Below the pieces are notes generated by a model. That model was not told the DNA's origin. It made no database searches and saw only the letters and a program-made list of their open reading frames with translations. From Candidatus Latescibacterota bacterium (GTDB lineage: Bacteria > Latescibacterota > UBA2968 > UBA8231): 64,000 bases of DNA. The position numbers and the translations under genes are program-made. This document shows, in pieces, positions 8,226 through 64,000 of this stretch. The stretch covers positions 4,160,001-4,224,000 of the forward strand of contig OZ220089.1 of assembly GCA_964291625.2 (NCBI GenBank), given 5' to 3'. Position 1 is the first letter of the stretch. Each line of letters opens with the position of its first letter.

Positions 8226-8746
8226 GACGACCTCCGCGTGAAAGGTTGCCTGGCCCGGGTCAGTCGATGAACTCGAGGGTGCCCTTCATGGCGACCACCC
8301 CGAGGACCGAGCACCAGTCCCCAGAAGAAGCCATCGTTGCGGCTCTCCACTCTCCTTTTGCGAAGACGCTTCCCATGGCCTTCCCGGTACCCCTGGACGT
8401 ACTCGATGCCCTTACCCCGGATGGCCCCGTACTCCTTCTGCGTCATCGAGCCGTCGCTCGGGGTGTATCCGTCGCACACGAACAGACCGACGAAGCTGAA
8501 GCCGCACACGTAGCCGGACAGCCACCACCACCGGGTCCCCTTGAACTCGGCGGCCATCTCGCCGTCGAGGGCGCCCTGCTCCCGCGAGTACCCCGGCAGG
8601 ACGGGCTGCGGCTCTCCGGACGGCCCCTGGGCGAGCACGAATCCCAGGTGCCGCCTCTCGCCCGGCGGTTCCAGTCGAGCCTCCCCATGCGCGCCCGTCA
8701 GACTCAGAAGACCAAGCAGCACGAGGACTGCCGACATCGGCTTCAT
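8219..8746 (-). CDS. Small secreted/membrane hypothetical protein; possible frameshift near the 3' end (alternative stop at 8260)
   Basis: Strong RBS (AGAAGGAGGGAG) before ATG 8746, signal peptide MKPMSAVLVLLGLLSLTGAHG, hydrophobic WWWLSGYVCGFSFVGLF segment. Confidence 0.55.
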   Translation of the reverse strand: MKPMSAVLVLLGLLSLTGAHGEARLEPPGERRHLGFVLAQGPSGEPQPVLPGYSREQGALDGEMAAEFKGTRWWWLSGYVCGFSFVGLFVCDGYTPSDGSMTQKEYGAIRGKGIEYVQGYREGHGKRLRKRRVESRNDGFFWGLVLGPRGGRHEGHPRVHRLTRARQPFTRRSSC

Positions 8747-8768
8747 CACTCCCTCCTTCTGGTTTCTT

Positions 8769-11236: not shown

Positions 11237-11276
11237 CTGCACTCCTCTCAGTGGGACGCGTATCGCCCATGATCCC

Positions 11277-12547
11277 TCACTCGTGGTGCAGAGCCTCGGC
11301 CGGCCTGACGCGCGCCGCCAGCCAGCTTGGATAGAGGCCGCACAGCAGCACCAGCAGATAGAGCACCAGTGCAGCCGCGGCGAGACCGCCCATGGCGATG
11401 TGGATCGGTATCCAGCTGTCGAGCACCAGGCCCAGCAGATCGAAATGGAGGATGGGCACACCGCCCAGGGCGACGGCCGCCGTCGCCAGCACGACCAGCT
11501 CGCCGAGGAAGAGGGCGTAGACGTTGCCGCCGGCGGCCCCTACGGCCCGTCGGACCCCGATCTCCCGGGTGCGGCGGCGCACGGCCTGCCACAGGATGCC
11601 GCTCAGCCCCAGGGCAACCATGAGCATCAGCAGGCCGCTGAGCAGGGCGGTGTTCTTCAGACTCTGGACCTGCCCAGCCTGCCTGCGGTCCTGCATCTGG
11701 GCCAGGGAGCGCACGTTGAAGCGCATGGCCTGGCTCGCCGGAACGACGGCCCGCACTCTGTTTCGGAGCTCTTCGCCGAACTCCGCTCCACTCCGCGAGG
11801 GGGTCCTCAAGAGCAGATTCACGCCGCGGGATGACTCGAGCGTATCGACTCGCGTGTCGGGCATGAGGAAAAAGAGCGTGCCCGGCACCCTGCTCCGTGA
11901 GGATCCGTACTTCCCGTAGTAGAGGCAGTCTTCCACGACACCTACTACGGGGAAACTGCCGACCGGGGAGTGCATGGTCATGTTCAGGCTCCTGTATCCC
12001 TCCAGCCCGAACTTCTCTCTCACCTGTTCCGCGTCGAGTATCTTTCCCAGCGGGTCCTGGTCGCCGAACAGGGCGCGGCTGAGCTGGCGGTCCATCACGA
12101 CGGGACTCCGGTCGCCGGAGAGCGCCTCGTCTTCCGGCTCGAACCAGCGCCCGCTGTGCAGCCGCAGCCCCAGCGTTTCCAGGCCCTCCTTCGAGATGTT
12201 GACGGCGGCCATCCCGTTCCAGGCGCCCATGCCTTCGAACGGTGACTGCTCGGCGAGCGCCGCCGATTCGACGGCGCCGAGAGCCTCCATCTCCCGCCGG
12301 ACCATCGTCACGGTGCGCCCGAAATCGGACGACTGCTCCCCCGAGGGCTCCCGCATCCAATCGTGCCTCGCCAGGTTCACCGACCACACATCCTCGTACT
12401 CGAAGCCCGGCGATTCCATGCTCTCGACGGCGAACAACACCCAGCCCACACCCATGAAGGCGACAATGACGAAGACCAGCGTCAGCTCGCCGACGAGCAG
12501 CAGGTTGGTCCGCCGCCGGTTCCACGCCAGCCGGCACAGGTGGAGAA

Positions 12548-12551
<4 letters not shown>
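11277..12551 (-). CDS. ABC transporter permease, MacB/FtsX family (type B, pair 1)
   Basis: MILHLCRLAWNRRRTN, RRTREIGVRRAVGA, C-terminal PAEALHHE. Confidence 0.9.
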
Positions 12552-13834
<1,283 letters not shown>

Positions 13835-13841
13835 GGCGTCC

Positions 13842-14507
<666 letters not shown>

Positions 14508-43909: not shown

Positions 43910-44024
43910 GCGATCAGGCTCATGGCACGAAGGAAGGGGGGATGTGGCTTCACATCCCCCCTTCACTGAATCAGCCCCACGGTGCAGGCCGGGTCTGTGC
44001 CGCACACGACAAGAGGGTGACATC

Positions 44025-45989: not shown

Positions 45990-46000
45990 GGCGCGGCCAC

Positions 46001-48526: not shown

Positions 48527-48540
48527 GCTGTCGAGCGGGA

Positions 48541-50715
48541 ATGCAGCGGATCAGCCTCGGCCTGGCCATGGCCGCCACACTGTGCCTGGTGGCCCGCGAT
48601 CTGGCTGCCGAGAGCCGGACCCTGGGCGGCGCCGGCGATCGACCCTGGAACGGCGGCGGCGGAGAGATCCCGGCCGCGGTGCAGACCAGCGTCGACGGGG
48701 CCGCGGTCACCAACACTCCGGGCGATGTGGTGGACTTCGACTTTCCCGGCCGACCGGGCTGGATCTTCCCCGAGAGGGCCGACTCCACGAGGAATATCGC
48801 CGCCGAGGCCGCCCTGACCTCGCCGAACATCCTGACCGAGGGCATCGCCGAGGAACTGCTCCTGATGGTGGACGGCGATCTCGAGACCGCTTTCACCCAG
48901 AAGGGCGAACCAGGGGGGCCGCAGGTCCTCGCCTTCGGGGCCATGTTCGACGTCGACCTGGGGGCGCGCTTCGGGGTGAACCGGGTCCAGTTCTTTCCGA
49001 GGAACGCTCCGGGATTCGAGGCCCCCGGCTTTCCTTTCCAGAACGATTATCTGCGCGCCTACGAGCTCCTCGTCAACGACGGCAGCGAGAACTCCAGGGA
49101 CGAGTCCGGCAGGCCGGTGCTGACCACCTTCAAGCTGGAGCTGCAGAACGACCGGCCCGTGGTCGACCTGCGGATTCCCCCCCAGTACCTGCGCTTCCTG
49201 CGGCTGAAGTCGCAGACGGTCGTCGGCTTCGAGATCGCCGAGTTTCGGGTATTCGGGGCGGGGTTCGTGCCAGAGGCCCGGTACATCTCCAGTGTATTCG
49301 ACCTGGGGACCCGCTGGGGGGTGTGGGGCAAGATCCGGTGGATCGAGGAGACCCTGGGTCCCGAAGGGCTGGCCCGGGCCCGCATCACGACCCGGGCGGG
49401 GCATGACGATACGCCCCTGGAGTTCACCCGCCCCGGTCCGGATTCGGAGGACATCCCCTGGCAGCGGGGAGCGGTGGCCACCACGGCCGAGGGGGAGGAG
49501 ATCGCCCTGGACGATCTCGAGCCCCTCGAAGCCCTGCGGGCCTACCGCGCCCTGCCCCTGGCGGAGAAGAACCGGGTGGCCCTGAGCCTGGAGGAGTATC
49601 TCGGCCTGAAGCCACGGGGCCGGATCCGCGACGATCCGGACGCCTGGACCCCGTGGTCGGCTCCGTATGGGCCGGAAGGCAGCCGCGGCATCACGACGGA
49701 GAATATCGATGACGAGCGCCTCGGGGCGGTCGTCACCACTCCGGGCCCACGGCGCTACTTCCAGGTCCGGGTGGAACTGTTGAGCCGGGACCTGGAGGCA
49801 GCCACCGGCATCGGGCAGCTGGCCTTCACGGTGCACCCCCCGGCGGCGGAGCGGATCGTCGGAGAGATCTACCCGCGCCAGGCCGGGCTGGCCGTGGCCG
49901 AGACGTTCACCTACGCGGCCATGCCCACCCGCATACGGCCGGGCCGGGACAGCGGCTTCGACACCTTCGAGATCGCCACGCCGGTCCGCGTCGAGGCGAT
50001 CGAGACGGTGCAGGTCCGCTTCCACGACGGCCGCACCGAGGCGGCGGATTTCTCGGGTCGGGATCTGGGCCCGTCGGCGTTGCCCACCGATCCGGCCGCC
50101 GACTTCGGCATCGAGCTGGTGGAGGAACGGCGGTTCCGGGTCCGCTTCCCGGCCATCACGAGGAGCGACCTCGAGGCCGGCGAGACCGCCGTCCTGACGA
50201 TCCGGTTCCGCTGCCGCGTCCTCCGCTACGGGACGACCTTTCCCGGGTGGGCCGGCCGCACCGGCAGCGGCAGCGCCGGCCAGAAGATCCTCGCCGGCAA
50301 CGCCGCCCACCTCGGTCCCGGGGACCCCGCCTTTCCTCCCCTGGGCACGGCGGACCCGCGGGTCCTGTCGGTGGACGTTCCCCTCGCGGGCGGCGGCGTC
50401 CTGATCAACGCCCGGGTGTGGCCGCGGCCCTTCAGCCCCAACGGCGACGGGGTCAACGACGGGACCCGCGTCTCCTACGACCTGTCCCGCGTCATCGGTC
50501 CCGTGGCCGTGGAGGTGAGGATCCTCGACGTGGCGGGGCGCGTCGTTCGCCGCCTCTTCACCGGCGAGCAGGAGGGCGGGCACTGGTCGATGCCCTGGGA
50601 TGGGACCGACGGCGGCGGTTCCCCGGTGCCGCCCGGGATCTACCTGGCCCACGTGGCGGTGAACAGCGCGGCCAGCGTCGAGACGGCGGCTGCCGTCGTC
50701 GAAGTGGCATACTGA
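48541..50715 (+). CDS. Secreted discoidin-like + FlgD-Ig/CHU_C domain protein (paralog 3)
   Basis: Signal peptide MQRISLGLAMAATLCLVA, MVDGDLETAF...DLGARFGVNRVQFFPR, FSPNGDGVND...WDGTDGGGSPVPPGIY, ending VEVAY. Confidence 0.82.
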   Translation: MQRISLGLAMAATLCLVARDLAAESRTLGGAGDRPWNGGGGEIPAAVQTSVDGAAVTNTPGDVVDFDFPGRPGWIFPERADSTRNIAAEAALTSPNILTEGIAEELLLMVDGDLETAFTQKGEPGGPQVLAFGAMFDVDLGARFGVNRVQFFPRNAPGFEAPGFPFQNDYLRAYELLVNDGSENSRDESGRPVLTTFKLELQNDRPVVDLRIPPQYLRFLRLKSQTVVGFEIAEFRVFGAGFVPEARYISSVFDLGTRWGVWGKIRWIEETLGPEGLARARITTRAGHDDTPLEFTRPGPDSEDIPWQRGAVATTAEGEEIALDDLEPLEALRAYRALPLAEKNRVALSLEEYLGLKPRGRIRDDPDAWTPWSAPYGPEGSRGITTENIDDERLGAVVTTPGPRRYFQVRVELLSRDLEAATGIGQLAFTVHPPAAERIVGEIYPRQAGLAVAETFTYAAMPTRIRPGRDSGFDTFEIATPVRVEAIETVQVRFHDGRTEAADFSGRDLGPSALPTDPAADFGIELVEERRFRVRFPAITRSDLEAGETAVLTIRFRCRVLRYGTTFPGWAGRTGSGSAGQKILAGNAAHLGPGDPAFPPLGTADPRVLSVDVPLAGGGVLINARVWPRPFSPNGDGVNDGTRVSYDLSRVIGPVAVEVRILDVAGRVVRRLFTGEQEGGHWSMPWDGTDGGGSPVPPGIYLAHVAVNSAASVETAAAVVEVAY

Positions 50716-50728: not shown

Positions 50729-53527
50729 TTGACGACTGGCAGGACGTCGGGGGTGCTGAGTCTCGTGGTGCTCATCGCCACGATGCAGGCGTCCGATCTG
50801 TTCGGTCAGGCCGGCCGGCGACTCGGAGAGCGGCGGGGGGGAGAGATCACCTACGAACCCAGGGGCCCCGGGGTCATCTTCGACGCCCTCGATCCGGCCC
50901 TCAGGAAATGGTACGTGCCGCAGGAGCTCTACGAGCTGTACGGCTGGCAGCAGTGGCAGTACTCCAACTACGCCCGCACACCGTACCAGCGGTACGTGGG
51001 CACCGACCGCGAGGGCGACCCCTTCTACGATCTCTACGGCAACTACCTGACCCGGGGCTGGCTGATCTGGGACTGGAACCAGAGCCAGCCCGGCCAGTTC
51101 GGTTCCTCCCTCTACAAGGATCCCAGGTTCGCCGGCTGGTTCAGCAGCGTTCTCGTGAGTTCGGATTCGAGGGGCCAGTTCCACTACGCCATCACCGCCG
51201 GGAATCAGATCCGGACGGCGTTGACGCCGCTCACCTTCTCGAAGCCGATCTTCAACGGCCTGCAGATGGACCTGGCCACGGACAAGTACCGCGGCACCCT
51301 TCTGTTCTCGCGGATCAGCTCTCCGGTGGCCAGCACCACGTCCTCGAGGGAGCCCAGGACGGTCACCAACGCCACCAACCTGATGGGGGGGCGGGTCGTG
51401 GCCGAGGTCGGGGACTTCGTGGAGGTGGGAGCGACCCTGGTGAACGCCCACAACTCCCAGACCTTCGAGGACGCCTTCGAGCGGAACCCGCTCCAGGGCG
51501 CGCTGGCTGCCAACCAGGGAGCGGTCCCGGTTCGCCGCCTGGCCCTGGTTCTGAGCGACGATTCACCGGAGGACGGAGTGGCCGGCGCCGCCCTGTTCTC
51601 GCACGAGATCATCGTGACCACGGAGGACCCGGCCACCGGGAGGCGGCAGGAGATCCGCCAGCGGGCCCTGGCGACCGATCCGGCCCGGTGGCCCGTGGTC
51701 AGCGGCGGGTTCCACCACGAGGGTTTCCAGAGCGCCGACGGGGACGAGAAGATCGTCATCAGCTACGACCTCAACGACATCTCCTACACCGGGCCGCGTC
51801 CGGGCACGATCACCAGGATCACCTTCGAGGTGGTGGTGGCCAACGACTACCGCATCCAGGTCTGGTCCGACCGTCAGACCGGACTGCGCCCCACGCCCAG
51901 CCTGCCGCTCAGCGGCGAGGATATCGACGAGCTCGCGCCGGCCCTCTTCGAAGTGGCAAGGGCCGCGGGCAATGTGTCGGACAACTCCAACCAGACCCGG
52001 CTGGTCTTCGAGTACGGCCTGCCCACGGCGAACATGGTCTACGGGTTCACCGTGGACGTGAAGGAGGTGATGGGCTTCGATGCCTACGCCGAGCTGGCCA
52101 TCAACCGGTCCTGGCACCAGTTCCCCAACCCCGCCCTGGCCCAGGCGGACCGCGCCCTGTCGGGCCACTCCAGGGATGCAGAGGCATGGATGGTCAACGT
52201 GTCGAAGGTGGACTACCCGTTCTTCGCCTTCGGAGAAGCGTTCAGCCTGGATCCCGACTACTCCACCACGGCGTACCTCGTGGACAGCGAAGGGGACGTC
52301 CTCTACGACCATACGACCCGGCACCTCTACGAGTTCGTCGACGACAATGACGACCAGGACCGGTTCCCCGACTGGAGCCGGTGGCAGCAGGGCTCCGGCG
52401 ATGCCAACGTCTTCCCGGGATGGGACGAGAACAACGACTTCGTGTCGGACTTCAATCAGAACGACAGCAACATCCTGTCGAACCGCATCCCCGACTACGA
52501 GGAGCCCTTCTTCCGCTACCACTCGGACCGGCCCGAGTTCCTCTTCGGTATCGACCTGAACAACAACCACTGGGTCGACCGCTTCGAGAACGACGATCTG
52601 GCCGACTACCCCTACAAGCGGGACCAGCGGGGGTACAACGTCTACGGCGGCCTCTTCGCGACCCCCGGCGTCAAGGCCTCCCTGGGGCGCATGCGGGTCG
52701 ACGCCCTCTCCTCCGACCGGAAGAACCACACCACGTACGGACTGGTCACCGTCACCCACGACGATCCGCGCTTCGGCCGGGTCCGGATCTACGACATGCT
52801 CAAGCGGACCCGGGACACCATACCCGACGACCGCCGCGAGATGACTCCCTACCTCGGTCTCGCCACGGGCAATCTGATCAACATCGAGGATCAGCTCCCG
52901 GCGCGCGATACCTGGGTCAACTCGGCCTACCTGGAGTTGAGTCTCCGCCCGGTGGGGGAGATGAAGGCGGTGACCAAGCTGAAGCACGACCTGTACGCCC
53001 AGCAGGGAGACGCCCACGAACGGGGGGTCGGGCCCGTGCTCGAGGACCGCACCCATTTCTTCGGGATCATCAACAAGGCGGACTACACCTGGCGCGCCCG
53101 CAGCCTGGAGGTGCAGCCCAGGATCAAGAGCGAGTACCTCAACCAGACGCCCTTCATCCTGGACGGAGACGAGCGCCGGGAGTGGACGGGCACGGGCATC
53201 CTGCTGCTGCGGCATCCCATGTTGGGCGCCTCCTCCCTGGAGGCGGGGCTGGAGTACCACCGCGTTGCGGACCTGATGCTGAACGAGGAGGAGGCCCTGG
53301 CCGCCAACCGCGTGGGGGCCACGGGCGACTCCCGCAGCCTGGTGCTGGCCGCCCAGTGGTCCACCGTCGGCGAATACCAGGGATATACGCTGATCACCCG
53401 ATTCGGCATCATGTACACCCGGGTCTGGGACGAGTTCATCACCGCCGGCGGCCTGGGAGCCTCGGTGAAGGAAGACCGGGGCCGCGAACTGAGCACCACC
53501 TTCATCACCATAAACGCCGGACTGTGA
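50729..53527 (+). CDS. Large secreted hypothetical protein, putative outer-membrane beta-barrel with Asp/Asn-rich Ca-binding loops (paralog A)
   Basis: TTG start after GAGGAGG, signal peptide, DDNDDQD/DENNDFVSD/DLNNNHWVD loops, amphipathic strands at the C-terminus ending FITINAGL. Confidence 0.75.
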   Translation: MTTGRTSGVLSLVVLIATMQASDLFGQAGRRLGERRGGEITYEPRGPGVIFDALDPALRKWYVPQELYELYGWQQWQYSNYARTPYQRYVGTDREGDPFYDLYGNYLTRGWLIWDWNQSQPGQFGSSLYKDPRFAGWFSSVLVSSDSRGQFHYAITAGNQIRTALTPLTFSKPIFNGLQMDLATDKYRGTLLFSRISSPVASTTSSREPRTVTNATNLMGGRVVAEVGDFVEVGATLVNAHNSQTFEDAFERNPLQGALAANQGAVPVRRLALVLSDDSPEDGVAGAALFSHEIIVTTEDPATGRRQEIRQRALATDPARWPVVSGGFHHEGFQSADGDEKIVISYDLNDISYTGPRPGTITRITFEVVVANDYRIQVWSDRQTGLRPTPSLPLSGEDIDELAPALFEVARAAGNVSDNSNQTRLVFEYGLPTANMVYGFTVDVKEVMGFDAYAELAINRSWHQFPNPALAQADRALSGHSRDAEAWMVNVSKVDYPFFAFGEAFSLDPDYSTTAYLVDSEGDVLYDHTTRHLYEFVDDNDDQDRFPDWSRWQQGSGDANVFPGWDENNDFVSDFNQNDSNILSNRIPDYEEPFFRYHSDRPEFLFGIDLNNNHWVDRFENDDLADYPYKRDQRGYNVYGGLFATPGVKASLGRMRVDALSSDRKNHTTYGLVTVTHDDPRFGRVRIYDMLKRTRDTIPDDRREMTPYLGLATGNLINIEDQLPARDTWVNSAYLELSLRPVGEMKAVTKLKHDLYAQQGDAHERGVGPVLEDRTHFFGIINKADYTWRARSLEVQPRIKSEYLNQTPFILDGDERREWTGTGILLLRHPMLGASSLEAGLEYHRVADLMLNEEEALAANRVGATGDSRSLVLAAQWSTVGEYQGYTLITRFGIMYTRVWDEFITAGGLGASVKEDRGRELSTTFITINAGL

Positions 53528-56405
53528 TGTCCGGGCTTCCCGAAGGGCGCACGGTGCGGCCCGGGCTGGCCGCGGGCCCCTCGCGGACCCTCGTTCTCGC
53601 CGCCCTCGCGGTGGCCCTGGTCGCCGGCCCCGGCGCCGCCCGGTGGGACTACGGGAACCGCCTCGGCCTCCGCGAGGGCGGCCGGGTGAGCTACTACCCG
53701 GCGGCTCCCAGCATCGACGCGCAGACCTTCGATCCATCTCTGAAGAAGTGGTACAGGCCCCAGCAGATCGCCAACCAGTACCGCTGGCGCTGGGAGGAGA
53801 CCAACTACGCCCTCCAACGCTACCTGCGTTACCTGGCCACCGATCAGGAGGGCGACCATCAGTACGATCTCTACGGCAGGTTGCTCACCCGGGGTTGGCT
53901 GATCTACGACTGGCAGCAGAGCCGTCCCCGCACGTCGGAAGGGAACCTGCTCCACAAGACCGGGGAGTACAAGGACCTTCTCGGTTCCCTCGTGGTCTCT
54001 TCCGACGCCAAGGGGCAGCACTTCTTCCGGGTGACCGTGGGCGACGAGATCAGCACGACCCTGACGCCCATGACCTTCCGGAAGACGGCCTTCAACGGGG
54101 TCCAGTTCGACTACATGTCCGATCGCGGCTCGGCGACGGCCCTCATGTCCCGGGTCAACATCCCGCTGGTGGAGCCGAGGGCCAGTTTCGTCGACGAGTT
54201 CACCACCCTCGTCGGTCTCCGGACCGTCTGGAACGCCGCCGACTTCGTCCGCATCGGGGGGACCTTCGTGAACGCCCACAACGGGCGGAGCTCGACCCGT
54301 CCCTTCGACGGCAGTCCCTACACGGGGAGGCTGAGCTCCCACCAGGCGGGCGCCCGCATCAACCGGATCACGGTGCAGATCAGCGACGACTCCCCGGCAG
54401 ACGGCGGGGCCGGTCCCGCCCTCTACGCCCACGACATCGAGATCACCACGCGCATAGGGGAGCTGGACACGGTGCTGGTGGGCAGCCGGACCGGGTTCCA
54501 CCCGAGGGTTTCGGGCGGGGTCGCCCGGGACGGCTTCCTGGCAGCCGAAGGCGCCGGCGACCTGGGGCGGATCCGGCTGGAATACGTCTTCGCCGATCTG
54601 GAGGCGGCGGTGCCCCTGGCCGACGTGGTGAACAACATCAGCCAGGTCCGCTTCCGGATGGTCCTGAGCAACGACTACAAGGTGGAGGTCACCTCCGACC
54701 AGCAGACGGACAACGCCCTCTTCGAGCCGCGTCCGGTCTTCCGGACCCTGGCGCGGGCGCCGGGGAACGTGAAGGACCACTCCAACCTGGGCTCCGTGGT
54801 CTTCGACTACGGACTGCCCACGGCCACCCAGGTCCTCGGCTTTACGGTGGAGGCCGACGATCTGGCCGGGTTCCGGCTCTACGGCGAGTTCAACGTGAAC
54901 CACCGCTACCGCAAGTACCCCGACGTGAGCCGCGGCACCCACACCACCTCGTCCGGCATCGGCGGCCATCCCTACGCCGAAGGGTGGATGGTCAACGTGG
55001 CCAGGGTCCTCTACCCGTACTACGTCTTCGGCGAGGCCTTCGGCATGGACGCCGAGTACTCGACGTCCATGCGGTTCCTGGACACGGCGGGCCGCGTCGA
55101 CTACTCGGACACGCCCCGGGCCAGGTCCCGCTACCTCTACGACCTGGTGGACGACAACGACGACAACGACCGCAAGAACGACCAGAAGCGCATCTTCGAC
55201 GACGGCCGCACGGGAGGGGAGCGGGGCCTGGGCGTGGTGCGCGGGTTCGAGGGGTACGCGGACGAGGCGGTCTTTCCCGGCCTCGACGAGAACAACGACT
55301 TCATCTCCGATTTCAACCAGAACGACACCCGGGAGCGGCCCAACCACATCCCCGACTACGCCGAGCCCTTCCTGCGCTACAGCGTCGACCGGCCCGAGTA
55401 TCTCTTCGCCGTGGACATGAACAACAACGGCTGGGGAGACCGTTTCGAGAACGACGACGAACCCGACTACCCGTACAAGCGGGACCGCCGCGGATACAAC
55501 GTGTACGGCGGAGCGTGGATCCTGCCGGGGGCCAAGGTCACCGCGGGCCACCAGCGGGTGCGCCGCCCCTCGACGGGCGAGACGAACGCGACCAGCTATG
55601 CCCTTCTCGCCTTCGAGGGCAGCTATCCCGGCGTGGGCGAGCTGACCGTCTACAACATGCTCAAGCGGGTCGAGGACGACATCCCGGACGACCTCTTCCA
55701 GTGGCTCCAGGGGAGGTTCAGGGTCGCGGGCATGACCCCGGTACCGGACCCGCTGGCCATGCCGGACACCTGGGTCAACAAGCTCGCCCTCGGCTTCGAG
55801 CGCCTCGGGAACACCGGCATCAACTCGGAGAGCAGGCTGATCCACGAGGTGCTGCGGCAGCGGCGGGAGCTCACCGCGGATCGGGGGGGCGGAGGATCCC
55901 GAAGAGCACCCGGCGCCTCGGTCTGATCAACAAGCTGGACTGGCTCCATGCCCTGGGCCACGGCATCCAGCTCCGTCCGCGCTTCAAGCACGAGCTGTTC
56001 CTGGACGATACCCCCTACAACACGGAGTGGCTCCTGAACGACCGGGTCTTCGAGCGCCGGGAGTGGGCCGGCATGGCCTCCCTGCGGCTGGACATCCCGG
56101 TGCTGAGCCACAGCACGGTGATCGTCGGCCTGGAGCAGGTCGTCTTCCGCGACCTGGCCCAGCGGGAGGTCGCCTTCGACGAGGACCCCGTGGCGGGCCT
56201 GAATCCGGGCGATGCCACGGGGGACTTCGATGAGCTGTCCCTCGCCTTGCAGCTGGCCAATGCGAGCACGTACATGGGATACAGACTGATGGCCACCATC
56301 GGGATTCGCGTGGACAGACGGAAGAGCGACACCTTCGCCGCCAGGGACCGCTCGGATACAAGCGGTCTGTCCTTTTTCACCGTCTACGCAGGATTGAGGG
56401 AATGA
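53527..56405 (+). CDS. Paralog B of the putative beta-barrel, with an apparent frameshift at the G7 run 55883-55889
   Basis: Collinear with paralog A (YDLYGxxLTRGWLIxDW; DYPYKRDxRGYNVYGG). After the G-run, a different frame carries GLINKLDW (paralog A: GIINKADY) and ends FTVYAGLRE. Confidence 0.72.
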
Positions 56406-58081
56406 TGGGACCAGCCGGAGCGGTGCTGATCCTGGCCGCGGGGGCGGTCCTGGCCGGTTGCGGGGAAGACCCCCGCGGGCCGGTGCTGGCCGAGGTGGGG
56501 GACTCCCGCATCCACGCGTCCGACCTGCGCCGCTACGAAGAGCGCCTGGCCGAGAGCCTGAGGTCCCGGGAGGCGGGCATCGAAGGCCGGCGGCAGCATC
56601 TGCAGGCCCTGATCGACAAGGAGATCCTCATTCGGGAGGCGGCGGCGCGGGGATGGGACCGGGACCGCGACATGCGCCGCAGGCTGGAGCGCGAATGGAC
56701 CCGGCGGCTGGTGCAGGAGTTCCTGGCCCGGGAGGTGGATGCCAGGATCACCCTCGAGGAGCAGGAGGTCCGGGACCAGTACCTCAAGAGCGGACGAGAC
56801 CGCGCGGTCCGGTGCGGCCGGATCGATGTCGGGACCAGGGAAGAGGCCGAGGAGATCGTGCGCCTCCTCGAGGGCGGCGCCGACTTCGGGGAGTTGGCGA
56901 GGCAGCGCTCGACCCACCGTCCGACGGCGGCGCAGGGGGGCCTCTACACCGGCTACGTCACCCGGGACCAGATCCCCCTGGCCATCATGCGGGAGCAGGT
57001 CTATCCCCTCGAGAAGGGGGAGATCTCCGAGCCGCTGCCCCTCCCGGGCGGCTCCTACGGCGTGTTCCAGGTCGTGGAGGAGGTGACGGTTCCCCTCGAA
57101 CGGGTGCGGCGCCTGGTGGAAGCCGAACTCCACCGGGAGAAGGCCCGCGTCCGGTCCATGGAGCTGGGCCGGGAACTGCGGGATGCCCTGGACGCGCGTC
57201 CCCGGGAAGACGGTTTCGAGCTTCTCGCCGCGCGTCTGGAGAGCGGGGCCAGCTCGCTCTCCGAGGCGGAGCGCGGCGCGGTCCTCTACGAGTTCGACGG
57301 CGGCGCCGTCACCGTGGGGGAGCTCGTCGACTCGGCCCGCGAGAACTACCGGCGGTTTTCCGGCGACGCGCGGGAGCAGGTGCGGTGGTTCGCGGAGTCC
57401 GTCCTGGTTCCTCGGGCGCTGATCGTGCAGGCCGCCCGCAATGCCGGCATCGACCGCGAGCCGGGGATGGCCGCCTGGCGCCGGGCCAGGGAGCACGAGC
57501 GCCTGCTGACGGTCATCCGGAGAGAGGTGACCGACGACGTCTCCGTGGCCGAGGCCGAGGCCCGGCGCTTCCATCGCGAGAATCCGCGGCTCTTCGTCCC
57601 CCAGGAGGATCTGACGCTGGACGAGATCCTGGTGGCGACACGGGAAGAGGCGGTTGCGGTCCGCCGCCGGATCGAGGCCGGTGAGGACCTGCGGCTCCTG
57701 GCCCTGGAGCACACCCTGCGGCACCAGGCCATTCCGGACAGCGGGAGATTCCACCTCCATGAGTACGAGAGAGAGGCCCACGAGGCCCTCTTCGAAGCCG
57801 CTCGGGGAGCCGCGCCGGGCGACCTGGTGGGTCCCGTCGAAGTGGAACTGCCGGCGTCAGGAGACCGCTTCCATTCGGTGTTCCGGGTCGTCGAGTCGAC
57901 CCTCGGCGCCGGCCCCCGGCCCTTCGCCGAGGTCGAGACCCGCGCCCGGGCGATGGTCCTGCGCCGCAAGCGCGATGCGGCCTTCTACCGGTTTCTGGGG
58001 GAGTTGCGGAAACGGTACGAGTCCCAGGTCAGGATCCACGAAGAGAGCCTGAAAGCGCTGGTACGACAGGAGGGCAGCTGA
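56402..58081 (+). CDS. Parvulin-type peptidyl-prolyl cis-trans isomerase lipoprotein (PrsA/SurA-like, two rotamase domains)
   Basis: Lipobox LAGC, VLAEVG, GADFGELARQRS...GGL...GEISEP, and a second domain EILVAT...GEDLRLLALEHT...GDLVGPV. Confidence 0.88.
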   Translation: MMGPAGAVLILAAGAVLAGCGEDPRGPVLAEVGDSRIHASDLRRYEERLAESLRSREAGIEGRRQHLQALIDKEILIREAAARGWDRDRDMRRRLEREWTRRLVQEFLAREVDARITLEEQEVRDQYLKSGRDRAVRCGRIDVGTREEAEEIVRLLEGGADFGELARQRSTHRPTAAQGGLYTGYVTRDQIPLAIMREQVYPLEKGEISEPLPLPGGSYGVFQVVEEVTVPLERVRRLVEAELHREKARVRSMELGRELRDALDARPREDGFELLAARLESGASSLSEAERGAVLYEFDGGAVTVGELVDSARENYRRFSGDAREQVRWFAESVLVPRALIVQAARNAGIDREPGMAAWRRAREHERLLTVIRREVTDDVSVAEAEARRFHRENPRLFVPQEDLTLDEILVATREEAVAVRRRIEAGEDLRLLALEHTLRHQAIPDSGRFHLHEYEREAHEALFEAARGAAPGDLVGPVEVELPASGDRFHSVFRVVESTLGAGPRPFAEVETRARAMVLRRKRDAAFYRFLGELRKRYESQVRIHEESLKALVRQEGS

Positions 58082-58104: not shown

Positions 58105-61100
58105 ATGCGGCGGCTGGTCGTCTGGCTGACGCTGCCGGTGCTGTGCGCCGCCGCCCGGGCGGACGCGGACGGCATCCGCGCCACCGTGGAGTTCATGGCC
58201 TCCGTCGGCTCCCGGGTCAGTGGCTACCCGGGCAGCGACCTGGCCGCCGACTACGTGGCCGACGCCTTCGCCGCCGCCGGCGTCCGCGAGGTCGCCGTCG
58301 AGGAGTACCCGATCACCGTGCCCCTCGACCGCGGCGGCGAGCTCACCCTCACCGCCTCGGGCGAGCGCTTCCGCCTCCACGGCCTGTGGCCCAACCACGT
58401 GCGGACCCCCACGGTGCCGGATTCCGGGCTCTCCGGTCACCTGATCTACGGCGGGGAAGGGCGCCTGTCCGAGTACGCGGGCCTCGAGCTCGCCGGCAGC
58501 ATCGTCCTCCTCGAGTTCAACACGGGCAACCGCTGGCTGGAGGCCGCCTCCCTCGGGGCCCGCGCCATCCTGTTCATCGAGCCGCAGGCCACCTCCGGGC
58601 GCGAGGCGGGGGCCAAGTTCGTCTCCGTCCCCCTCGACATACCGAGGCTCTGGATCGACGCCGCCGCCGGCGCCCGCCTGAGGGACCTGGCGGAGGACGG
58701 ACCCCTCGAGGCGCGCCTGGGGAGCCGCATGGACTGGGTCTCGCGGAAGGGCCGCAACATCTGGGGCGTGGTCCCCGGTCACCACCCCGAGCTCGGGGGG
58801 GAGACGATCGTCGTCCAAGCCTACTACGACGGCATCTCCATCGTCCCGGCCCTGGCGCCCTCGGCCGAGACCGCCGGCGGCGTCGCCGCCCTGCTGGAGC
58901 TGGCCCGGCATCTCCAACGCCGCCCGCCGGCGCGGACCGTCGTCCTGGTGGCGACCGGGGCCCACTTCCTCGCCCGGCGGGGGATCGTCGACTTCCTCGA
59001 CCGCCATGCCCGCACCCACGAGGAGTACGCCGGGCTCATGGAGAAGCCCCTCGATCCGGCCCTCTTCATCGGCCTGGACCTGACCAGCGGCAGCGATCGC
59101 ATCGGCATCTGGAACAACACCGACCGCTACGACATCAAGCGGTTCTACGTCCCCTTCGGCCGCGCCTTCACCGCCTACGCCGAGGCGGCGGCGCCCCTCC
59201 TGGGGCGCAGGGCGGAGCGCGCCCTGGTCAACGGCATCAGTCCCCTCAAGGGCCTCGACTGGTCGACCTACGTGCCCGGGGGGGTCACCGTGGACGGCCA
59301 GGTGGCCATGGCCGCGGGGCTCGTGGCCCTCTCCTTCGTCACCATCGGCGACGGCCGCTTCGTCGTCGACACGCCCCTGGACCGGCCGCAGCGGGTCGAC
59401 TTCGACAACCTGTCCCGGCAGAGCGCCTTCCTCAACCAGATCCTGAGCCGGGCCTTCGACGATCCCCGGCTGCTGGCCGACCTGGAGGACTTCGGCCCGG
59501 TCCTGAAGGACGAGCTGCGCACCTTCCGCGTCGACGTGCGCGCCTTCCCGCGCCGCAGCCAGGTGCCCGACCGGATCGTCGAGGGGGCCATCGTCGCCCT
59601 GGGCGCGGGCGCCGCGCGGCGGGCCGGGCCGGGCTTCAAGCCCCACAAGGGAGTGCGCGCCTTCCGCTTCCACCTGGCCGACGGCAACGGCAGCGCCGTG
59701 ATCCCCGGGCTGCCCCTCGGGGCCGTGCCGGTGAGCGCCTACGTCCTCGACCCCGAGACCGGCGATGTCGTCTACGCCCCCGACAGCGGCGAGCGCGCCG
59801 GCAGGCACCACGGCAAGAAGCTGGCCCAGGCGATCCGCTTCGCCGGCGAGCACAAGACCCTCGTCGTCTTCCCCTGCGCGTCCCGGCCCTTCTACGGCCT
59901 CGTCGACCCCCGATCCCTCACGGCCGTCCGGCAGATCCGGGTCGTGAACCACACGGGCGTGGCGCCCAAGGAATACGGCGTGGCCAGGGGCGAAGGCGTC
60001 CGGGAGCCGGTGGCGGTGGCCTTCGCCGCGGCCGACGACAGCCTCATGTACCTCATGTCGGACAGCATGATTCTCACCAACAGCCGCACCGACCCGCGCG
60101 GCACCGGGTACGTGGTCGGCCGGGACCCTCTCGAGCGCACCGACTACCTGGCGGTGCAGGACATGTGGCGGATCAACGACGAGCGCCTGGCGGCGATGCG
60201 CGACCACGCCATCGAGAATCCGCGGCTGGCGGCGCTGCACGCCTGGGGACGCGAGCTGATCGACCAGGCCGGGGCCGCGGCCGAGAGGCGGGACTGGGAC
60301 GCCTTCATGTCCAGGGTGCGGGCCGCCCGGGGCGTCACCTCGCGGGCCTACCCGGACGTGATGGCCACTCTGAACGACGTCATCAAGGGGCTCGTGTTCT
60401 TCCTCGCCCTGGTGCTGCCGGCCGCCTTCTTCGGCGAGCGTCTGGTCTTCGCCGCCGCCGACATCCGCTGGCAGCTGTCCGGCTTCGCCCTGATCATGGC
60501 GATCGTCTGGGCGGCCATCTCCCAGGTCCATCCGGCCTTCGACATCGCCCATCCGGCGATCATCCTCCTCGCCTTCGCCATCATGGCCATGGCCGTCTTC
60601 GTCTTCGCCATGATCTTCTCGCGCTTCAACCACTACGTGGAGGAGTTCCATGCCCGCGCCTCCCAGGTGCACCGGGCCGACATCAACCGCGTCAGCGCCT
60701 CCTACGCCGCCTTCATGCTCGGCATCTCCAACATGCGGCGCCGCAAGCTGCGCACGACTCTGACCCTGGTGACGTTGACCCTGCTCACCTTCACCGTCCT
60801 CTCCTTCACCTCCTTCCGGCAGCAGCTCGCCTTCCTCGCCTTCCCCACCGCCCACGAGGCCCGTCACGAGGGGGTCCTGATCCGCCACCCCGGCTGGAAG
60901 GAGCTGTCGTCTCCGACCCTCGACTACGTGCGCTCCCACTTCTCCCGCCATGGCGTCGTGAGCCCGCGCAACTGGCTGGTGGCCGACGCGGGCAAGCCGA
61001 AGAGCTACATCGAGGTCCAGGGGAAGGCGGGCACGGTGCGCGCCGCCGGCCTGCTGGGACTGTCGCCGCAGGAGCCCCGGGTCACCGGCATCGACGAGGC

Positions 61101-62499
61101 CCTGGCGGCGGGCCGTTTCTTCGAGAGGGACGACGAGAGCACGTGCCTCCTTCCCGGGAGAATGGCCGCGGCCCTCGGCATCGGCGCGGCGGACGTGGGC
61201 CGGGCCGCCGTTCGCGTCTTCGGCCGGGACCTCGTGGTCCGCGGCATCGTCGACGCCGGCCGGCTGGACGCCATCCGCGATCTCGACGCCGAACCGCTCA
61301 CGCCGGCCGACTTCCAGAGCGGCGAGGTGCAGTTGCCCGGAGGCCGGGAGAGGGTCTCCATGGAGATCGAGGAAGAAGCGGGTCCGGACCGGATCGAGCC
61401 CTTCCTCCACATGGCGGCCGACAACGTCCTGATCCTGCCCTACGGCGCCGTGTGGGTGGCCGGCGGCACCCTGCGCTCCGTCGGCGTCCGCTTCGACGAC
61501 GGCGTCGACGGCCGTCCCCTGCTGGAGGGCTTCCTGACGCGCGTGGCCGCAACCCTCTTCGCCAGCCTCCGCGACCCCGGGACGGGCGAGCTCGAGGTCT
61601 CCTCCTACACCTCCGTGGGCCTGACGGCGGTGGAAGGACTCGCGGCGCTGTTCGTGCCCATCGTCATCGCCGCCCTCATCGTCCTCAACACCATGCTGGG
61701 CGCCGTGTACGAGCGTCTCCGGGAGATCGGCGTCTACTCCTCCGTGGGGCTGGCGCCGATGCACATCGCCCTGCTCTTCGTGGCCGAGGCCTGTGTCTAC
61801 GCCGTCCTCGGCGTCACCCTCGGCTACCTCCTGGGCCAGGGGTCGGCCAGGCTGCTGCTGACCCTCGACCTCGTGCACGCCATGGACCTGAACTACTCCT
61901 CCACGGCGGCGGTCTCGGCGGCCCTCATGGTCATGGTCCTGGTGCTGCTGTCCACCCTCTACCCGGCGCGAGTCGCCGCCGCCAGGGCGGTGCCGGACAC
62001 GGTGCGGCGCTGGGTGCCGCCCGACCCGGAGGGCGACCGCTGGGAGTTCGACTTCCCCTTTGCCGTGGGGACGGGCGAGGTCCGGGGACTGAGCGGGTTC
62101 CTGGCCGGCTGGTTCGGGTCCTGCAACGAGGACTCCGTCGGCGACTTCTACGCCGAGAAGGTGCGCCTCGTCACCGGCGGGGAGGCCGGGGCCCCCGCGT
62201 ACTCCCTGCAGATGCTGACCTGGCTGGCCCCCTTCGACAAGGGGGTGAGCCAGTACCTGCAGCTCGACTTCGCGCCCTCCCCGGTGGCCACCATCTACCA
62301 GGTGGAGGTCTTCATCGAGCGGATCAGCGGCGAGACGACGTCGTGGCGGCGGCTCAACCAGGGCTTCATGAACAGCCTGCGGAAGCAGTTCCTGCTGTGG
62401 CACACCTTCACGGAGGAGGCCAGGGCCCACCACCGGCAGGCCGCCGAAGGGATGCTGGCGGAGAGCGCTGCCCAGGCCGGCGGGGCCGACCTCGCATGA
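58105..62499 (+). CDS. Fusion of PA + M28 peptidase-fold ectodomain with a multi-TM MacB/FtsX-like permease (1464 aa)
   Basis: GSRVSGYPGSDLAADYV, PA domain, NIWGVVPG...ETIVVQAYYD, TM block, GISNMRRRKLRT, and FtsX motif VYERLREIGVYSSVGLAP. Confidence 0.85.
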   Translation: MRRLVVWLTLPVLCAAARADADGIRATVEFMASVGSRVSGYPGSDLAADYVADAFAAAGVREVAVEEYPITVPLDRGGELTLTASGERFRLHGLWPNHVRTPTVPDSGLSGHLIYGGEGRLSEYAGLELAGSIVLLEFNTGNRWLEAASLGARAILFIEPQATSGREAGAKFVSVPLDIPRLWIDAAAGARLRDLAEDGPLEARLGSRMDWVSRKGRNIWGVVPGHHPELGGETIVVQAYYDGISIVPALAPSAETAGGVAALLELARHLQRRPPARTVVLVATGAHFLARRGIVDFLDRHARTHEEYAGLMEKPLDPALFIGLDLTSGSDRIGIWNNTDRYDIKRFYVPFGRAFTAYAEAAAPLLGRRAERALVNGISPLKGLDWSTYVPGGVTVDGQVAMAAGLVALSFVTIGDGRFVVDTPLDRPQRVDFDNLSRQSAFLNQILSRAFDDPRLLADLEDFGPVLKDELRTFRVDVRAFPRRSQVPDRIVEGAIVALGAGAARRAGPGFKPHKGVRAFRFHLADGNGSAVIPGLPLGAVPVSAYVLDPETGDVVYAPDSGERAGRHHGKKLAQAIRFAGEHKTLVVFPCASRPFYGLVDPRSLTAVRQIRVVNHTGVAPKEYGVARGEGVREPVAVAFAAADDSLMYLMSDSMILTNSRTDPRGTGYVVGRDPLERTDYLAVQDMWRINDERLAAMRDHAIENPRLAALHAWGRELIDQAGAAAERRDWDAFMSRVRAARGVTSRAYPDVMATLNDVIKGLVFFLALVLPAAFFGERLVFAAADIRWQLSGFALIMAIVWAAISQVHPAFDIAHPAIILLAFAIMAMAVFVFAMIFSRFNHYVEEFHARASQVHRADINRVSASYAAFMLGISNMRRRKLRTTLTLVTLTLLTFTVLSFTSFRQQLAFLAFPTAHEARHEGVLIRHPGWKELSSPTLDYVRSHFSRHGVVSPRNWLVADAGKPKSYIEVQGKAGTVRAAGLLGLSPQEPRVTGIDEALAAGRFFERDDESTCLLPGRMAAALGIGAADVGRAAVRVFGRDLVVRGIVDAGRLDAIRDLDAEPLTPADFQSGEVQLPGGRERVSMEIEEEAGPDRIEPFLHMAADNVLILPYGAVWVAGGTLRSVGVRFDDGVDGRPLLEGFLTRVAATLFASLRDPGTGELEVSSYTSVGLTAVEGLAALFVPIVIAALIVLNTMLGAVYERLREIGVYSSVGLAPMHIALLFVAEACVYAVLGVTLGYLLGQGSARLLLTLDLVHAMDLNYSSTAAVSAALMVMVLVLLSTLYPARVAAARAVPDTVRRWVPPDPEGDRWEFDFPFAVGTGEVRGLSGFLAGWFGSCNEDSVGDFYAEKVRLVTGGEAGAPAYSLQMLTWLAPFDKGVSQYLQLDFAPSPVATIYQVEVFIERISGETTSWRRLNQGFMNSLRKQFLLWHTFTEEARAHHRQAAEGMLAESAAQAGGADLA

Positions 62500-64000
62500 G
62501 CAAGGCCGTCCCCCGGATCTACCGCCGGCACCTGAGCTCGCGCTCCGAGCCCCTCCTCGAGTCGCGCCACCGCCTGACGTGGCGGGGGTTCTTCGTGGGC
62601 AGCTTCCTGAGCTTCTTCCTGGCCATCGGCGCCCCCTACAGCAACATGGTCATCAAGGGCGCCTACGTGTCCGCCGACATCAGCACCCCGGGGGCGATCT
62701 TCGTCTTCGTCGTGCTCATCGGCCTCCTCAACCTCGCCTTCAAGGCAGCGGCCCGCAGCAAGGGGTCGGCCCTCGCCTTCGCCGCCGCCCTGGGGGCCGC
62801 CTGGCTCTCCGCCTACCGGCCCCTGGGCGATGTCGATGTGCATTCGCCCGGATTCATCTTCTCCACCTTCGCCCTGACCTGCGCCCTCGCCAACGTGCCG
62901 CTGGCCTGGTCCGGCCGCAGCCTGGCCCTCAACCGGGCCGAGCTGATCATGGTCTATGCCATGCTGGCCATGGTCTCGGCCGTGTGCACCATGGGCCTGA
63001 CCGAGATCCTCCTGCCCACCCTCACCGCCGTCTTCTACTACGCCTCGCCGGAGAACCAGTGGCGGGAGAAGCTCTTCCCCCACTTCCCCGAGCACGACAT
63101 CCTCGTGGACGACGGCGCCGGCAACGCCCTGTTCTTCGAGGGCATCTCCAGCTCCGGCGAGGGCATCCCCTACGGCGCCTGGGTCGAGCCGCTCACGTGG
63201 TGGGCGGTCTTCCTGCTGGCCCTCTACGTGTGCATGATCTCGATCGCCGTGATCCTGCGGCGCCAGTGGATGGAGCGGGAGCGGCTGAGCTATCCGGTCG
63301 CCCAGGCCGGTCTGGCCATGATCCGCGGCGAGGACGAGAAAGGCCTGGTGAACGGCTTCTTCAAGCGTCCCTCCGTGTGGATGGGCATGGCCATCCCCTT
63401 CATCGCCGGCAGCCTCCGGGCGATGTCGAACTACGACCCCTCCGTACCCATGGTGTGGATGCGCCTGCCCATACCCTACGCCTCCGGCAAGGTCGACTTC
63501 GCCCTCACCGGCTTCGCCTACCTCATCGACACGAGGATATCGGGGAGCCTGTGGGTGTTCTACCTGCTCGGCAGGATGCAGAAGAGCCTGCTGGCCACCG
63601 CCGGGATCAAGTCGGAGCAGGTCCTCGAGGGCGTCCACGACGCCCCCCTGGTCGGCTACGAGGGGCTGGGGGCCCTGCTGGTGCTGGTGGCGGTGGTGCT
63701 GTGGACGGCCCGCGACCACCTGAAGGCGGTCTGGCTCAAGGCCCTGGGCCGGGCGCCCCTCGTCGACGACCGGGACGAGATCCTCTCCTACCGCGGCGCC
63801 GTGATCGGCGCCCTCGGGGGGATCGCGGTCATGACCGGGTGGCTGTGGATCATGGGCACACCCCTGTGGGTCTCGTTCTTCTTCATCGTCCTGGCCATGG
63901 CGATCTTCATCGGCATCACCCGGATCATCGCCGAGGCCGGGCTGGCGACCCTGCGGACGCCCGTCAACGCCCCCGACTTCGTCATCCTGGGTCTCGGGTC
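62496..64000 (+). CDS. DUF6785-family (OPT-like) polytopic membrane transporter, 3'-truncated by the window edge; absent from the ORF track
   Basis: ATG at 62496 overlaps the previous stop (ATGA). The frame appears open to the window end, with LTWRGFFVG, LNRAELIMVYAM, FYYASPENQW, ILRRQWMERERLSYPVAQ and TRIIAEAG. Confidence 0.8.
   Translation, partial: MSKAVPRIYRRHLSSRSEPLLESRHRLTWRGFFVGSFLSFFLAIGAPYSNMVIKGAYVSADISTPGAIFVFVVLIGLLNLAFKAAARSKGSALAFAAALGAAWLSAYRPLGDVDVHSPGFIFSTFALTCALANVPLAWSGRSLALNRAELIMVYAMLAMVSAVCTMGLTEILLPTLTAVFYYASPENQWREKLFPHFPEHDILVDDGAGNALFFEGISSSGEGIPYGAWVEPLTWWAVFLLALYVCMISIAVILRRQWMERERLSYPVAQAGLAMIRGEDEKGLVNGFFKRPSVWMGMAIPFIAGSLRAMSNYDPSVPMVWMRLPIPYASGKVDFALTGFAYLIDTRISGSLWVFYLLGRMQKSLLATAGIKSEQVLEGVHDAPLVGYEGLGALLVLVAVVLWTARDHLKAVWLKALGRAPLVDDRDEILSYRGAVIGALGGIAVMTGWLWIMGTPLWVSFFFIVLAMAIFIGITRIIAEAGLATLRTPVNAPDFVILGLG

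Follow-up and report, generated by a model that had tools for sequence, protein, structure and literature searches.

ATP-binding cassette (ABC) systems of type VII are the model for moving force, not substrate, across the inner membrane, and all of those studied to our knowledge (MacB, Lol, FtsEX) depend on a dedicated ATPase. A different set of membrane proteins, comprising the transferrin receptor TfR1, nicastrin and nicalin, carries a PA and M28 peptidase fold without the zinc site, and the known parallels of this kind, the transferrin receptor and nicastrin, are eukaryotic. The PA-M28 aminopeptidases (BSAP/YwaD of B. subtilis, PDB 6hc6/6hc7; AM-1 of Aneurinibacillus, 2ek8; PaAP of P. aeruginosa, 8ac7) have the same fold, with the PA domain inserted within the M28 domain. 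Here we describe a gene in a 64,000-nucleotide stretch of a Candidatus Latescibacterota genome (contig OZ220089.1, positions 4,160,001 to 4,224,000; the whole stretch is termed the window) whose product bears on both groups. Its periplasmic head has the fold and domain order of the PA-M28 aminopeptidases and, as in TfR1, nicastrin and nicalin, lacks the canonical zinc site; the head stands on a MacB/FtsX-type membrane module, and the gene is accompanied by that of a permease-like partner.

The target open reading frame lies exactly where an earlier note, made from the sequence alone, had placed it, at 58105..62499 on the plus strand (ATG start, TGA stop, 1464 amino acids). Third-position G+C in the approximately 70% G+C DNA marks this frame as coding. 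The residues of its head were assigned to the M28 catalytic positions through hhalign columns against an alignment of 13 canonical M28 proteins, drawn from this genome and related ones. That alignment has invariant columns at the expected His, Asp, Asp, Glu, Asp, His and Asp positions and a nearly invariant one at the ligand Glu. The assigned motifs are as follows.

58819..58830, plus strand: AYYD, residues 239-242; Tyr240 is at the position of the first His ligand, and the second-shell Asp242 is kept
58858..58881, plus strand: PSAETAGG, residues 252-259; Glu255 is at the position of the bridging Asp
58957..58968, plus strand: GAHF, residues 285-288; His287 is at the general-base Glu and Phe288 at the ligand Glu
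59071..59082, plus strand: GLDL, residues 323-326; Asp325 is the retained Asp ligand
59365..59382, plus strand: VDTPLD, residues 421-426; Asp422 is at the last His ligand, and Asp426, the Asp of the H-T-x-x-D motif, is kept

The hhalign mapping bears out the identification of these five motifs in the earlier note, and a HMMER alignment to 6hc6 independently yields the pairs for Tyr240, Asp242, Glu255, His287 and Phe288. Because the His, Glu and His ligands and the base Glu are replaced, the canonical two-zinc peptidase site is absent; both alignments agree that neither the co-catalytic zinc site nor the Glu-Glu pair is left, as the note had proposed. One of its finer points needs revision. The Asp that it considered lost from PSAETAGG is replaced by Glu255, a residue found in 119 of 121 homologues, so that two of the five ligand positions (Glu255 and Asp325) still carry a carboxylate.

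Conservation was assessed in two samples. In the first, comprising 121 homologues that are 47-93% identical to the query, Tyr240 is present in 117, Asp242 and Glu255 in 119 each, His287 and Asp325 in 120 each, Phe288 in 115 and Asp426 in all 121, while position 422 is occupied by Asp (77), Asn (37), Ala (4) or Gly (3). The six-position signature YDEHFD is found in 112 of the 121. The second, more divergent sample consists of the best 150 representatives of 50%-identity clusters (all E ≤ 5e-111) together with the query. Among these 151 sequences, His287 is retained in 146, Asp242 in 148, Asp426 in 142, Asp325 in 139 (with a further 4 Glu) and Asp422 in 124. Tyr240 is found in 116 (His in 10, Phe in 9), and position 255 is Glu in 111 and Asp in 20. 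Position 288 varies widely (Phe 85, Tyr 15, His 14, Gly 12, Cys 11), and across the two samples position 422 tolerates Gly, Ala and Phe besides Asn. None of the 151 representatives has Glu at position 287 or 288. All five paralogues of this genome, down to 35% identity, read YDEH(F/H)D. The M28 core is also the best-conserved periplasmic domain, with a mean top-residue frequency of 0.74 and 35 of 245 columns invariant, compared with 0.69 and 26 of 269 for the MacB-like domain and 0.64 for the middle domain.

The conservation analysis suggested in the earlier note thus gives a two-sided answer: the ligand losses hold family-wide in both samples, and so does the conservation of the residues that took their place. 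Since the replacements are conserved throughout the family, the site has been remodelled and has not decayed. The description of the domain as catalytically dead is accordingly sound insofar as the canonical site is missing, and too strong insofar as it implies a dead relic. The head model superimposes on the Aeromonas/Vibrio aminopeptidase (1amp) at 2.4 Å, and from this structural equivalence the replacement residues would be expected to line the old metal pocket. The pocket formed by Tyr240, Asp242, Glu255, His287, Asp325 and Asp/Asn422 can be regarded as a conserved, family-specific Tyr/His/carboxylate site. It is unable to form the two-zinc centre of the canonical enzymes, but could plausibly accommodate a cationic ligand or one hard metal ion. 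On the strength of its conservation, the pocket is predicted to be functional, whether it binds a ligand or holds a metal in a non-canonical way.

The M28 assignment of the head is secure despite a sub-threshold Pfam score. Peptidase_M28 (PF04389) reaches 18.1 bits over residues 218-286, where its cut-off is 21.3, and aligns through profile positions 1-65 of 193; a precomputed match to this family is found in 30 of 120 homologues by manual count. However, hhalign of the family ectodomain against the 13 canonical M28 proteins gave a probability of 99.4% (E 5.6e-22, 401 columns). A PDB search with a profile built from 32 full-length homologues retrieved two PA-M28 aminopeptidases, 2ek8 at E 4e-12 and 6hc6 (YwaD) at E 5.8e-10, with the PA insert included in each alignment. 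These outscore the receptors nicalin (7tm3, E 0.0039) and TfR (E 0.14); sequence profiles therefore point to no specific kinship with TfR1, nicastrin or nicalin over the bacterial aminopeptidases. An AlphaFold2 (AF2) model of residues 20-770, computed from a 57-sequence alignment, reached a pLDDT of 89.4 and a pTM of 0.89. Foldseek matched this model to 2ek8 (E 9.8e-26), 6hc6 (1.4e-23), PaAP (approximately 1e-21), the transferrin receptor 1de4 (9.4e-21) and GCPII (approximately 5e-19). For the core enzyme, the references were the Aeromonas/Vibrio enzyme AAP (1amp) and the Streptomyces griseus enzyme SGAP (1xjo). The superposition on the former, which the earlier note had proposed, gave a VIA-align Z of 27.8 with the root-mean-square deviation (rmsd) of 2.4 Å over 254 residues. 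VIA-align also returned 6hc7 (Z 27.9, 380 residues, 5.4 Å), glutaminyl cyclase 7d1d (Z 25.7), GCPII 4ngr (Z 25.5) and TfR 3kas (Z 25.1), and the matches to 1amp, 6hc7, GCPII and TfR all fall inside model residues 1 to approximately 520. The supposed likeness to inactive M28 folds is therefore borne out for the transferrin receptor and weakly for nicalin, while nicastrin is not among the fold and profile matches shown. The expectation that automated annotation would call the protein an aminopeptidase is realized in one homologue, P0090, named 'M28 family peptidase'; most named homologues are instead 'FtsX-like permease family protein' or 'hypothetical protein'.

The target protein comprises a signal peptide, the PA and M28-fold head, a beta domain, a helical stalk, three extra transmembrane (TM) helices, a MacB/FtsX module and a cytosolic C-terminal domain, arranged as follows.

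58105..58161, plus strand: signal peptide, residues 1-19, ending ...AAARA, read from the sequence with a predicted cleavage; the least conserved part of the protein
58162..59484, plus strand: periplasmic M28-fold head, residues ~20-460 (hhalign, PDB profile matches; AF2 pLDDT >90 over most of it)
58402-58749, plus strand: PA-domain insert in the head, residues ~100-215, spanned by the 2ek8 and 6hc6 profile alignments
59512..60129, plus strand: beta-rich middle periplasmic domain, residues ~470-675 (strands in the AF2 model)
60139..60411, plus strand: three-helix stalk leading into the membrane, residues ~679-769 (helices spanning 660-681, 687-708 and 712-750 in AF2 model numbering)
60379..60624, plus strand: three extra TM helices, residues ~759-785, 790-812 and 816-840 (hydropathy)
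60757..61977, plus strand: single MacB/FtsX-type module, residues 884-1291 (Pfam FtsX, PDB profile and fold matches)
61990..62496, plus strand: cytosolic C-terminal alpha/beta domain, residues 1296-1464, approximately 170 residues (AF2, pLDDT 73-90)

The MacB/FtsX module consists of TM1 (884-904), a periplasmic MacB-like domain (906-1174) and TM2-4 (1175-1291). PF02687 (FtsX) matches residues 1181-1291 with E 3.3e-11 and 43.7 bits against a cut-off of 25.5, and PDB profile searches matched the module to YtrF (2.1e-9), MacB (1.1e-7) and LolC (3e-6). Foldseek with the module model retrieved MacB 5gko (E 5.7e-15), followed by LolCDE, HrtBA, YtrEF and FtsEX, and the isolated periplasmic domain of MacB (3ftj) aligns with the model at a target TM-score of 0.60 and an rmsd of 4.0. 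NCBIfam gave MacB, LolC and FtsX matches far below threshold, plus a faint aminopeptidase match. The fusion of an FtsX permease to the M28 head, recognized in the earlier note, is thus genuine by Pfam, PDB profiles and fold matches alike. ERxxEIG is the cytoplasmic coupling-helix motif of MacB/FtsX permeases, and it is found here between TM2 and TM3, within residues 1199-1218 (GAVYERLREIG at 1199-1209); E1203, R1204 and I1208 are invariant and E1207 nearly so. The cytoplasmic linker that follows the extra TM helices carries an invariant LGISNMRRR. With a periplasmic head and seven TM helices, the cytoplasm receives the linker and the coupling helix together with the C-terminal domain, as in MacB; the target is a 7-TM inner-membrane protein. 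The membrane segments are its most conserved parts (28 of 82 columns invariant in the extra TM helices, 48 of 117 in TM2-4), and 29 of 145 columns are invariant in the C-terminal domain.

A second AF2 model (residues 745-1464; pLDDT 71, pTM 0.44) is confident for the periplasmic and C-terminal domains and low for the TM part. Residues ~466-699, which include the middle domain and the start of the stalk, have no Pfam match at E ≤ 10; no family was found for either part, and the listed fold matches do not extend over them. The C-terminal domain likewise has no Pfam match at E ≤ 10, no usable Atlas match and no P-loop in its sequence, and on these searches we rejected it as a known type of stand-in for an ATPase. 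We also considered whether the signal peptide, head and extra TM helices represent a second, degenerate FtsX unit. This was rejected, as hhalign of the three extra helices against TM2-4 gave a probability of 0.4% and the YtrF alignment begins at residue 885.

The genes beside the target provide the strongest clue to its function, a partner that the earlier note had missed. The gene that follows encodes a multi-TM permease of the DUF6785 and DUF6784 families, and its ATG overlaps the target TGA as ATGA. The neighbors, on the window where it reaches and beyond it on locus L066, are as follows.

56402..58081, plus strand: peptidyl-prolyl isomerase (PPIase) gene of the SurA/PrsA-like PpiC type, 559 amino acids (Pfam Rotamase_2 2.6e-11, Rotamase 3.6e-11)
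62496..64000, plus strand: DUF6785+DUF6784 multi-TM permease gene, 714 amino acids, running past the window end by 640 nucleotides
L066:2683-3405, plus strand: creatininase-family amidohydrolase gene (PF02633, 1.3e-35), 42 nucleotides after the DUF6785/6784 gene

In full length (L066:496-2640) the partner matches PF20581 (DUF6785) at 2e-107 and PF20580 (DUF6784) at 7.4e-26. A gap of 23 nucleotides separates the PPIase gene from the target, and a terminator-like hairpin lies at 56345-56368, immediately upstream of the PPIase gene; the two genes are probably in one transcription unit, which the creatininase-family gene probably closes. The PPIase neighbor is retained only in the three closest loci, L001-L003, and the creatininase-family gene only in L001 and L002.

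Genomic context was compared across 64 loci, which were kept from at least 765 related stretches on one-genome-per-species contigs and belong to related, not independent, genomes. A DUF6785/6784 gene adjoins the target homologue in 56 of them, and a gene for a multi-TM protein of approximately 900 amino acids without a Pfam match is adjacent in 47. Both are present in 40 loci and at least one in 63, the exception (L007) ending at a contig edge. The commonest gene order is DUF6785/6784, target homologue, ~900-amino-acid protein; the order seen here, PPIase, target, DUF6785/6784, is common only to the three closest loci. In eight of the 120 homologues listed, each of 2088-2143 amino acids, the target protein is fused to a following DUF6785/6784 part, the order being that of the genes here. 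The target is therefore a genetically obligate, sometimes covalently fused partner of the DUF6785/DUF6784 permease and usually also of the ~900-amino-acid protein.

In this genome, a ~900-amino-acid gene and then a second DUF6785/6784 copy lie 11.6 kb downstream of the target. Copies of the former are found at L066:12107-14812 (G000:C1:4234107-4236812), L067:15924-18617, L068:5353-7836(-) and L070:4260-6932(-), the four being 40-69% identical to one another. Members of this family share a conserved Cys/His knuckle in a loop, with a weak Zf_WRKY19 match in 15 of 22 (best E 1.6e-4), and, close to the C-terminus, an Asp-rich repeat (DDDGDG..DE) that is invariant. DUF6785/6784 paralogues account for 39 DNA matches in the genome, including G000:C1:4236844-4238331; one copy, 14 kb downstream, is 87% identical, and two form a tandem pair on contig 2, where a further target paralogue lies downstream of them.

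Further genes recur around the target homologues. An M42/M20-like peptidase gene is found in 35 of the 64 loci, divergent and upstream of the DUF6785/6784 gene (e.g., L067:5807-6946(-) and L009:6597-7721(-)). It is often accompanied by a short-chain dehydrogenase/reductase (SDR) gene, SDR genes being present in 37 loci, and by a gene for a xylose-isomerase-like TIM-barrel protein or an aldo-keto reductase. In 31 loci (e.g., L015:18000-19111), the ~900-amino-acid gene has immediately downstream of it a YbjN/CesT_Tir_1-like gene and then a PspA/IM30 gene; this pair hints at a link to membrane-stress handling, or may just reflect shared synteny. Heparinase II/III, sulfatase, DHDPS-family lyase and alpha-L-fucosidase genes occur nearby in single loci.

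An ATPase for the module was sought within the protein, beside the gene and elsewhere in the genome. No PF00005 domain is found in the precomputed domains of 120 homologues or in 14 long variants, and this genome has 68 ABC_tran and 44 FtsX matches in total. The ATPase gene nearest to the target, L066:8546-9226, lies approximately 8 kb downstream of its stop codon. It is of the LolD/FtsE type, with scores under all equivalog cut-offs, and comes immediately after the gene of its own LolC-like permease of 395 amino acids (MacB_PCD+FtsX). This pair recurs only in L001 and L002 (92-94% identical orthologues), not in L003 (81%). ATPase-like genes within 10 kb are found in 4 of the 64 loci: L001, L002, L027 and L044. 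Those of L027 were rejected as partners of the FtsX module, since they are MalK-type and lie beside BPD_transp_1 permeases (Pfam), as in a sugar importer; those of L044 show the same layout, by tblastn only, and were rejected likewise. Around the remaining four paralogues of this genome, no ABC_tran match occurs within 40 kb. Hence, no cognate MacB-type ATPase is fused or adjacent to the target family, and an ATPase acting in trans, or operation without an ATPase, is possible. The mechanotransmission module invoked in the earlier note is consequently real as a MacB/FtsX fold, but the ABC ATPase that such a module requires is neither fused to it nor encoded beside it.

Considering the remodelled site and the partner genes together, the reading that we favor, and hold to be somewhat probable, is that the head is a non-proteolytic recognition module for the partner permease, mounted on an FtsX-type base. 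The acidic, Tyr/His-lined pocket would most likely bind a cationic or amine-bearing ligand, such as a peptide N-terminus or an amino sugar, or a hard metal, having been inherited from a site that held the free amino group of the substrate together with the metals. The head would then present the ligand to the partner permease, or gate the permease, and the FtsX module and stalk would transmit the conformational change between the cytoplasmic and periplasmic sides. Several observations weigh against this reading. The neighboring genes are heterogeneous (M42-like, SDR and PspA/YbjN, elsewhere heparinase, sulfatase and fucosidase), so the substrate cannot be deduced from context, and the loci compared stem from related genomes and do not count as independent. 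An OPT-type importer nature of the partners is not borne out by sequence. PF03169 (OPT) matches none of the 22 aligned ~900-amino-acid proteins; on one divergent paralogue it matches C-terminally with 22 bits, below the cut-off, and TIGR00728 matches the same segment with E 0.0013. The two partner alignments, A4 and A5, gave hhalign probabilities below 1% against 10 true OPT proteins (collinear over 434 columns, non-significant) and E 0.058 against each other. PDB profile searches with the partner proteins returned nothing relevant, and Atlas no usable match. In view of these weak tests the partners are called permease-like, and OPT kinship is a weak lead. A carboxylate-rich His/Tyr site, moreover, could bind a metal and catalyze.

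This last point leads to the possibility, which we judge unlikely on balance, that the head is still an enzyme, in which His287, Glu255, Asp325, Asp422 and Tyr240 form a mononuclear or hard-metal site that trims or modifies a periplasmic substrate before uptake by the permease. Glutaminyl cyclases of the M28 fold work with one zinc, and the structural match to 7d1d shows that they share the fold of the head. The replaced positions are conserved to the degree usual for catalytic residues, and two carboxylate ligand positions are kept. The E151H mutant of the Aeromonas aminopeptidase, which places His at the base position as in the target, was reportedly the subject of a paper by Bzymek in 2005. 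The title of PDB entry 2anp terms this mutant 'functional', and His at the base position alone therefore does not kill catalysis. However, both canonical metal sites lose Zn-type ligands (His to Tyr240, Glu to Phe288, His to Asp/Asn422), position 288 varies freely (F/Y/H/G/C), position 422 tolerates Asn, Gly, Ala and Phe, and the Asp, Glu and His of a cyclase-type site are not those retained.

The remaining explanations concern the module rather than the pocket. We consider it quite unlikely that the module works without any ABC ATPase and that the extra TM helices and C-terminal domain couple it directly to an ion-driven DUF6785/DUF6784 permease, whose cycle moves, or is gated by, the head; if true, mechanotransmission would be powered by a secondary transporter in place of ATP. 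An ATPase encoded elsewhere might instead drive the module as in FtsEX-EnvC, with the inactive head switching a separate periplasmic hydrolase or envelope process and the permeases being secondary. The MacB/FtsX fold with its conserved ERxxEIG, the N-terminal LysM repeats of the long variant P0214 and the LolD/FtsE-type ATPase gene approximately 8 kb downstream would suit such a regulator, and FtsEX works via a non-catalytic peptidase-like adaptor according to excerpts of PMC7668044 and PMC11491553. Nevertheless, that ATPase has a LolC-like permease of its own in a pair confined to L001 and L002, the other four paralogues have no ABC_tran match within 40 kb, and the fusion in 8 of 120 homologues together with the adjacency in 63 of 64 loci argues that the permease is the core partner, which makes a regulator of this type very unlikely. 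The most improbable of these explanations is an exporter or extractor of the MacB/Lol kind, acting on a lipoprotein, peptide or polymer, with the head as a periplasmic docking platform. The closest solved relatives of the module (MacB, LolCDE, HrtBA) are indeed exporters or extractors, but no membrane-fusion protein, outer-membrane partner or ATPase is linked to the target, and its conserved partners are polytopic permease-like proteins.

The family to which the target belongs is large. An exhaustive profile search over 1.84 billion cluster representatives matched 5263 proteins at E ≤ 0.001, of which 1941 reach E ≤ 1e-10 and 1157 reach E ≤ 1e-30, the last figure giving the family no fewer than 1157 clusters at 50% identity. 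Five copies are found in this genome, and the family records are labelled Latescibacterota or Gemmatimonadota. Long variants (P0214, P0180, P0231 and P0251; 2451-3053 amino acids) carry N-terminal LysM repeats or Big_5 Ig-like domains before the M28-like head. The representatives P0126, P0130, P0132, P0241 and P0246 (800-920 amino acids) contain the whole ectodomain and are too short for the FtsX module. Either gene splitting or truncation at the end of a contig may account for them. The literature search found no paper on DUF6785/DUF6784, and none of the literature on FtsX, M28 or Latescibacter that it returned is about the target protein, judging by titles and the openings of abstracts.

Other FtsX-rich clusters are present in the window and the genome. 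Approximately 44 kb upstream of the target, six FtsX-domain matches stand in a row on the minus strand (5848-12913), with one ABC_tran match just beyond (13998-14447, minus strand); the stretch at 5848-14447 looks like a separate group of MacB/FtsX-type permeases with one ATPase in common. In a 29-kb array at G000:C1:2197234-2226175, open frames of 790-1041 amino acids contain roughly two dozen FtsX-domain matches, with just one partial ABC_tran match inside, at 2212303; the array looks like a dozen duplicated-permease genes in tandem. Nearer to the target, the plus-strand frames 43944-45989, 45920-48526, 47917-50715 and 50729-53527 encode large, secreted-looking proteins with FlgD_ig/CHU_C type IX secretion C-terminal domains and an F5/8 type C domain, two of them being paralogues 40% identical to each other.

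Compared with the type VII ABC systems (MacB, LolCDE, FtsEX, YtrEF, HrtBA and YbbAP), the target has the same succession of TM1, large periplasmic domain, TM2-4 and coupling-helix motif. It differs in having no fused or adjacent ATPase, in the three extra TM helices and head of approximately 750 residues at its N-terminus, and in the cytosolic domain of approximately 170 residues at its C-terminus; instead of an adaptor or outer-membrane duct, it has a polytopic permease as its conserved partner. FtsEX-EnvC, as described in parts of PMC7668044 and PMC11491553, offers a similar arrangement, with a catalytically incompetent metallopeptidase-fold domain that works with an FtsX module in the periplasm. 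EnvC, whose domain is M23/LytM, is a protein in its own right that binds the periplasmic domain of FtsX; the domain of the target is M28 and fused in cis. FtsE is required there, whereas no ATPase is linked to the target.

With respect to the PA-M28 aminopeptidases, the target has exchanged the His, Glu and His ligands and the base Glu for Tyr, Phe, Asp and His, and the bridging Asp for Glu. In addition, its head is tethered to the membrane, is followed by approximately 1000 residues and scores below the Pfam M28 threshold. Identifying the ligand of the pocket would assign a role to DUF6785/DUF6784, as well as to a major envelope system in poorly known uncultured lineages, and would also show how bacteria re-use a peptidase fold as a receptor. 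As to TfR1, nicastrin and nicalin, the replaced site residues are themselves highly conserved across the target family. A beta domain directly follows its M28 core, in place of the helical dimerization domain of TfR. Finally, in contrast to these eukaryotic proteins, the target comes from a bacterium and has an FtsX module attached.

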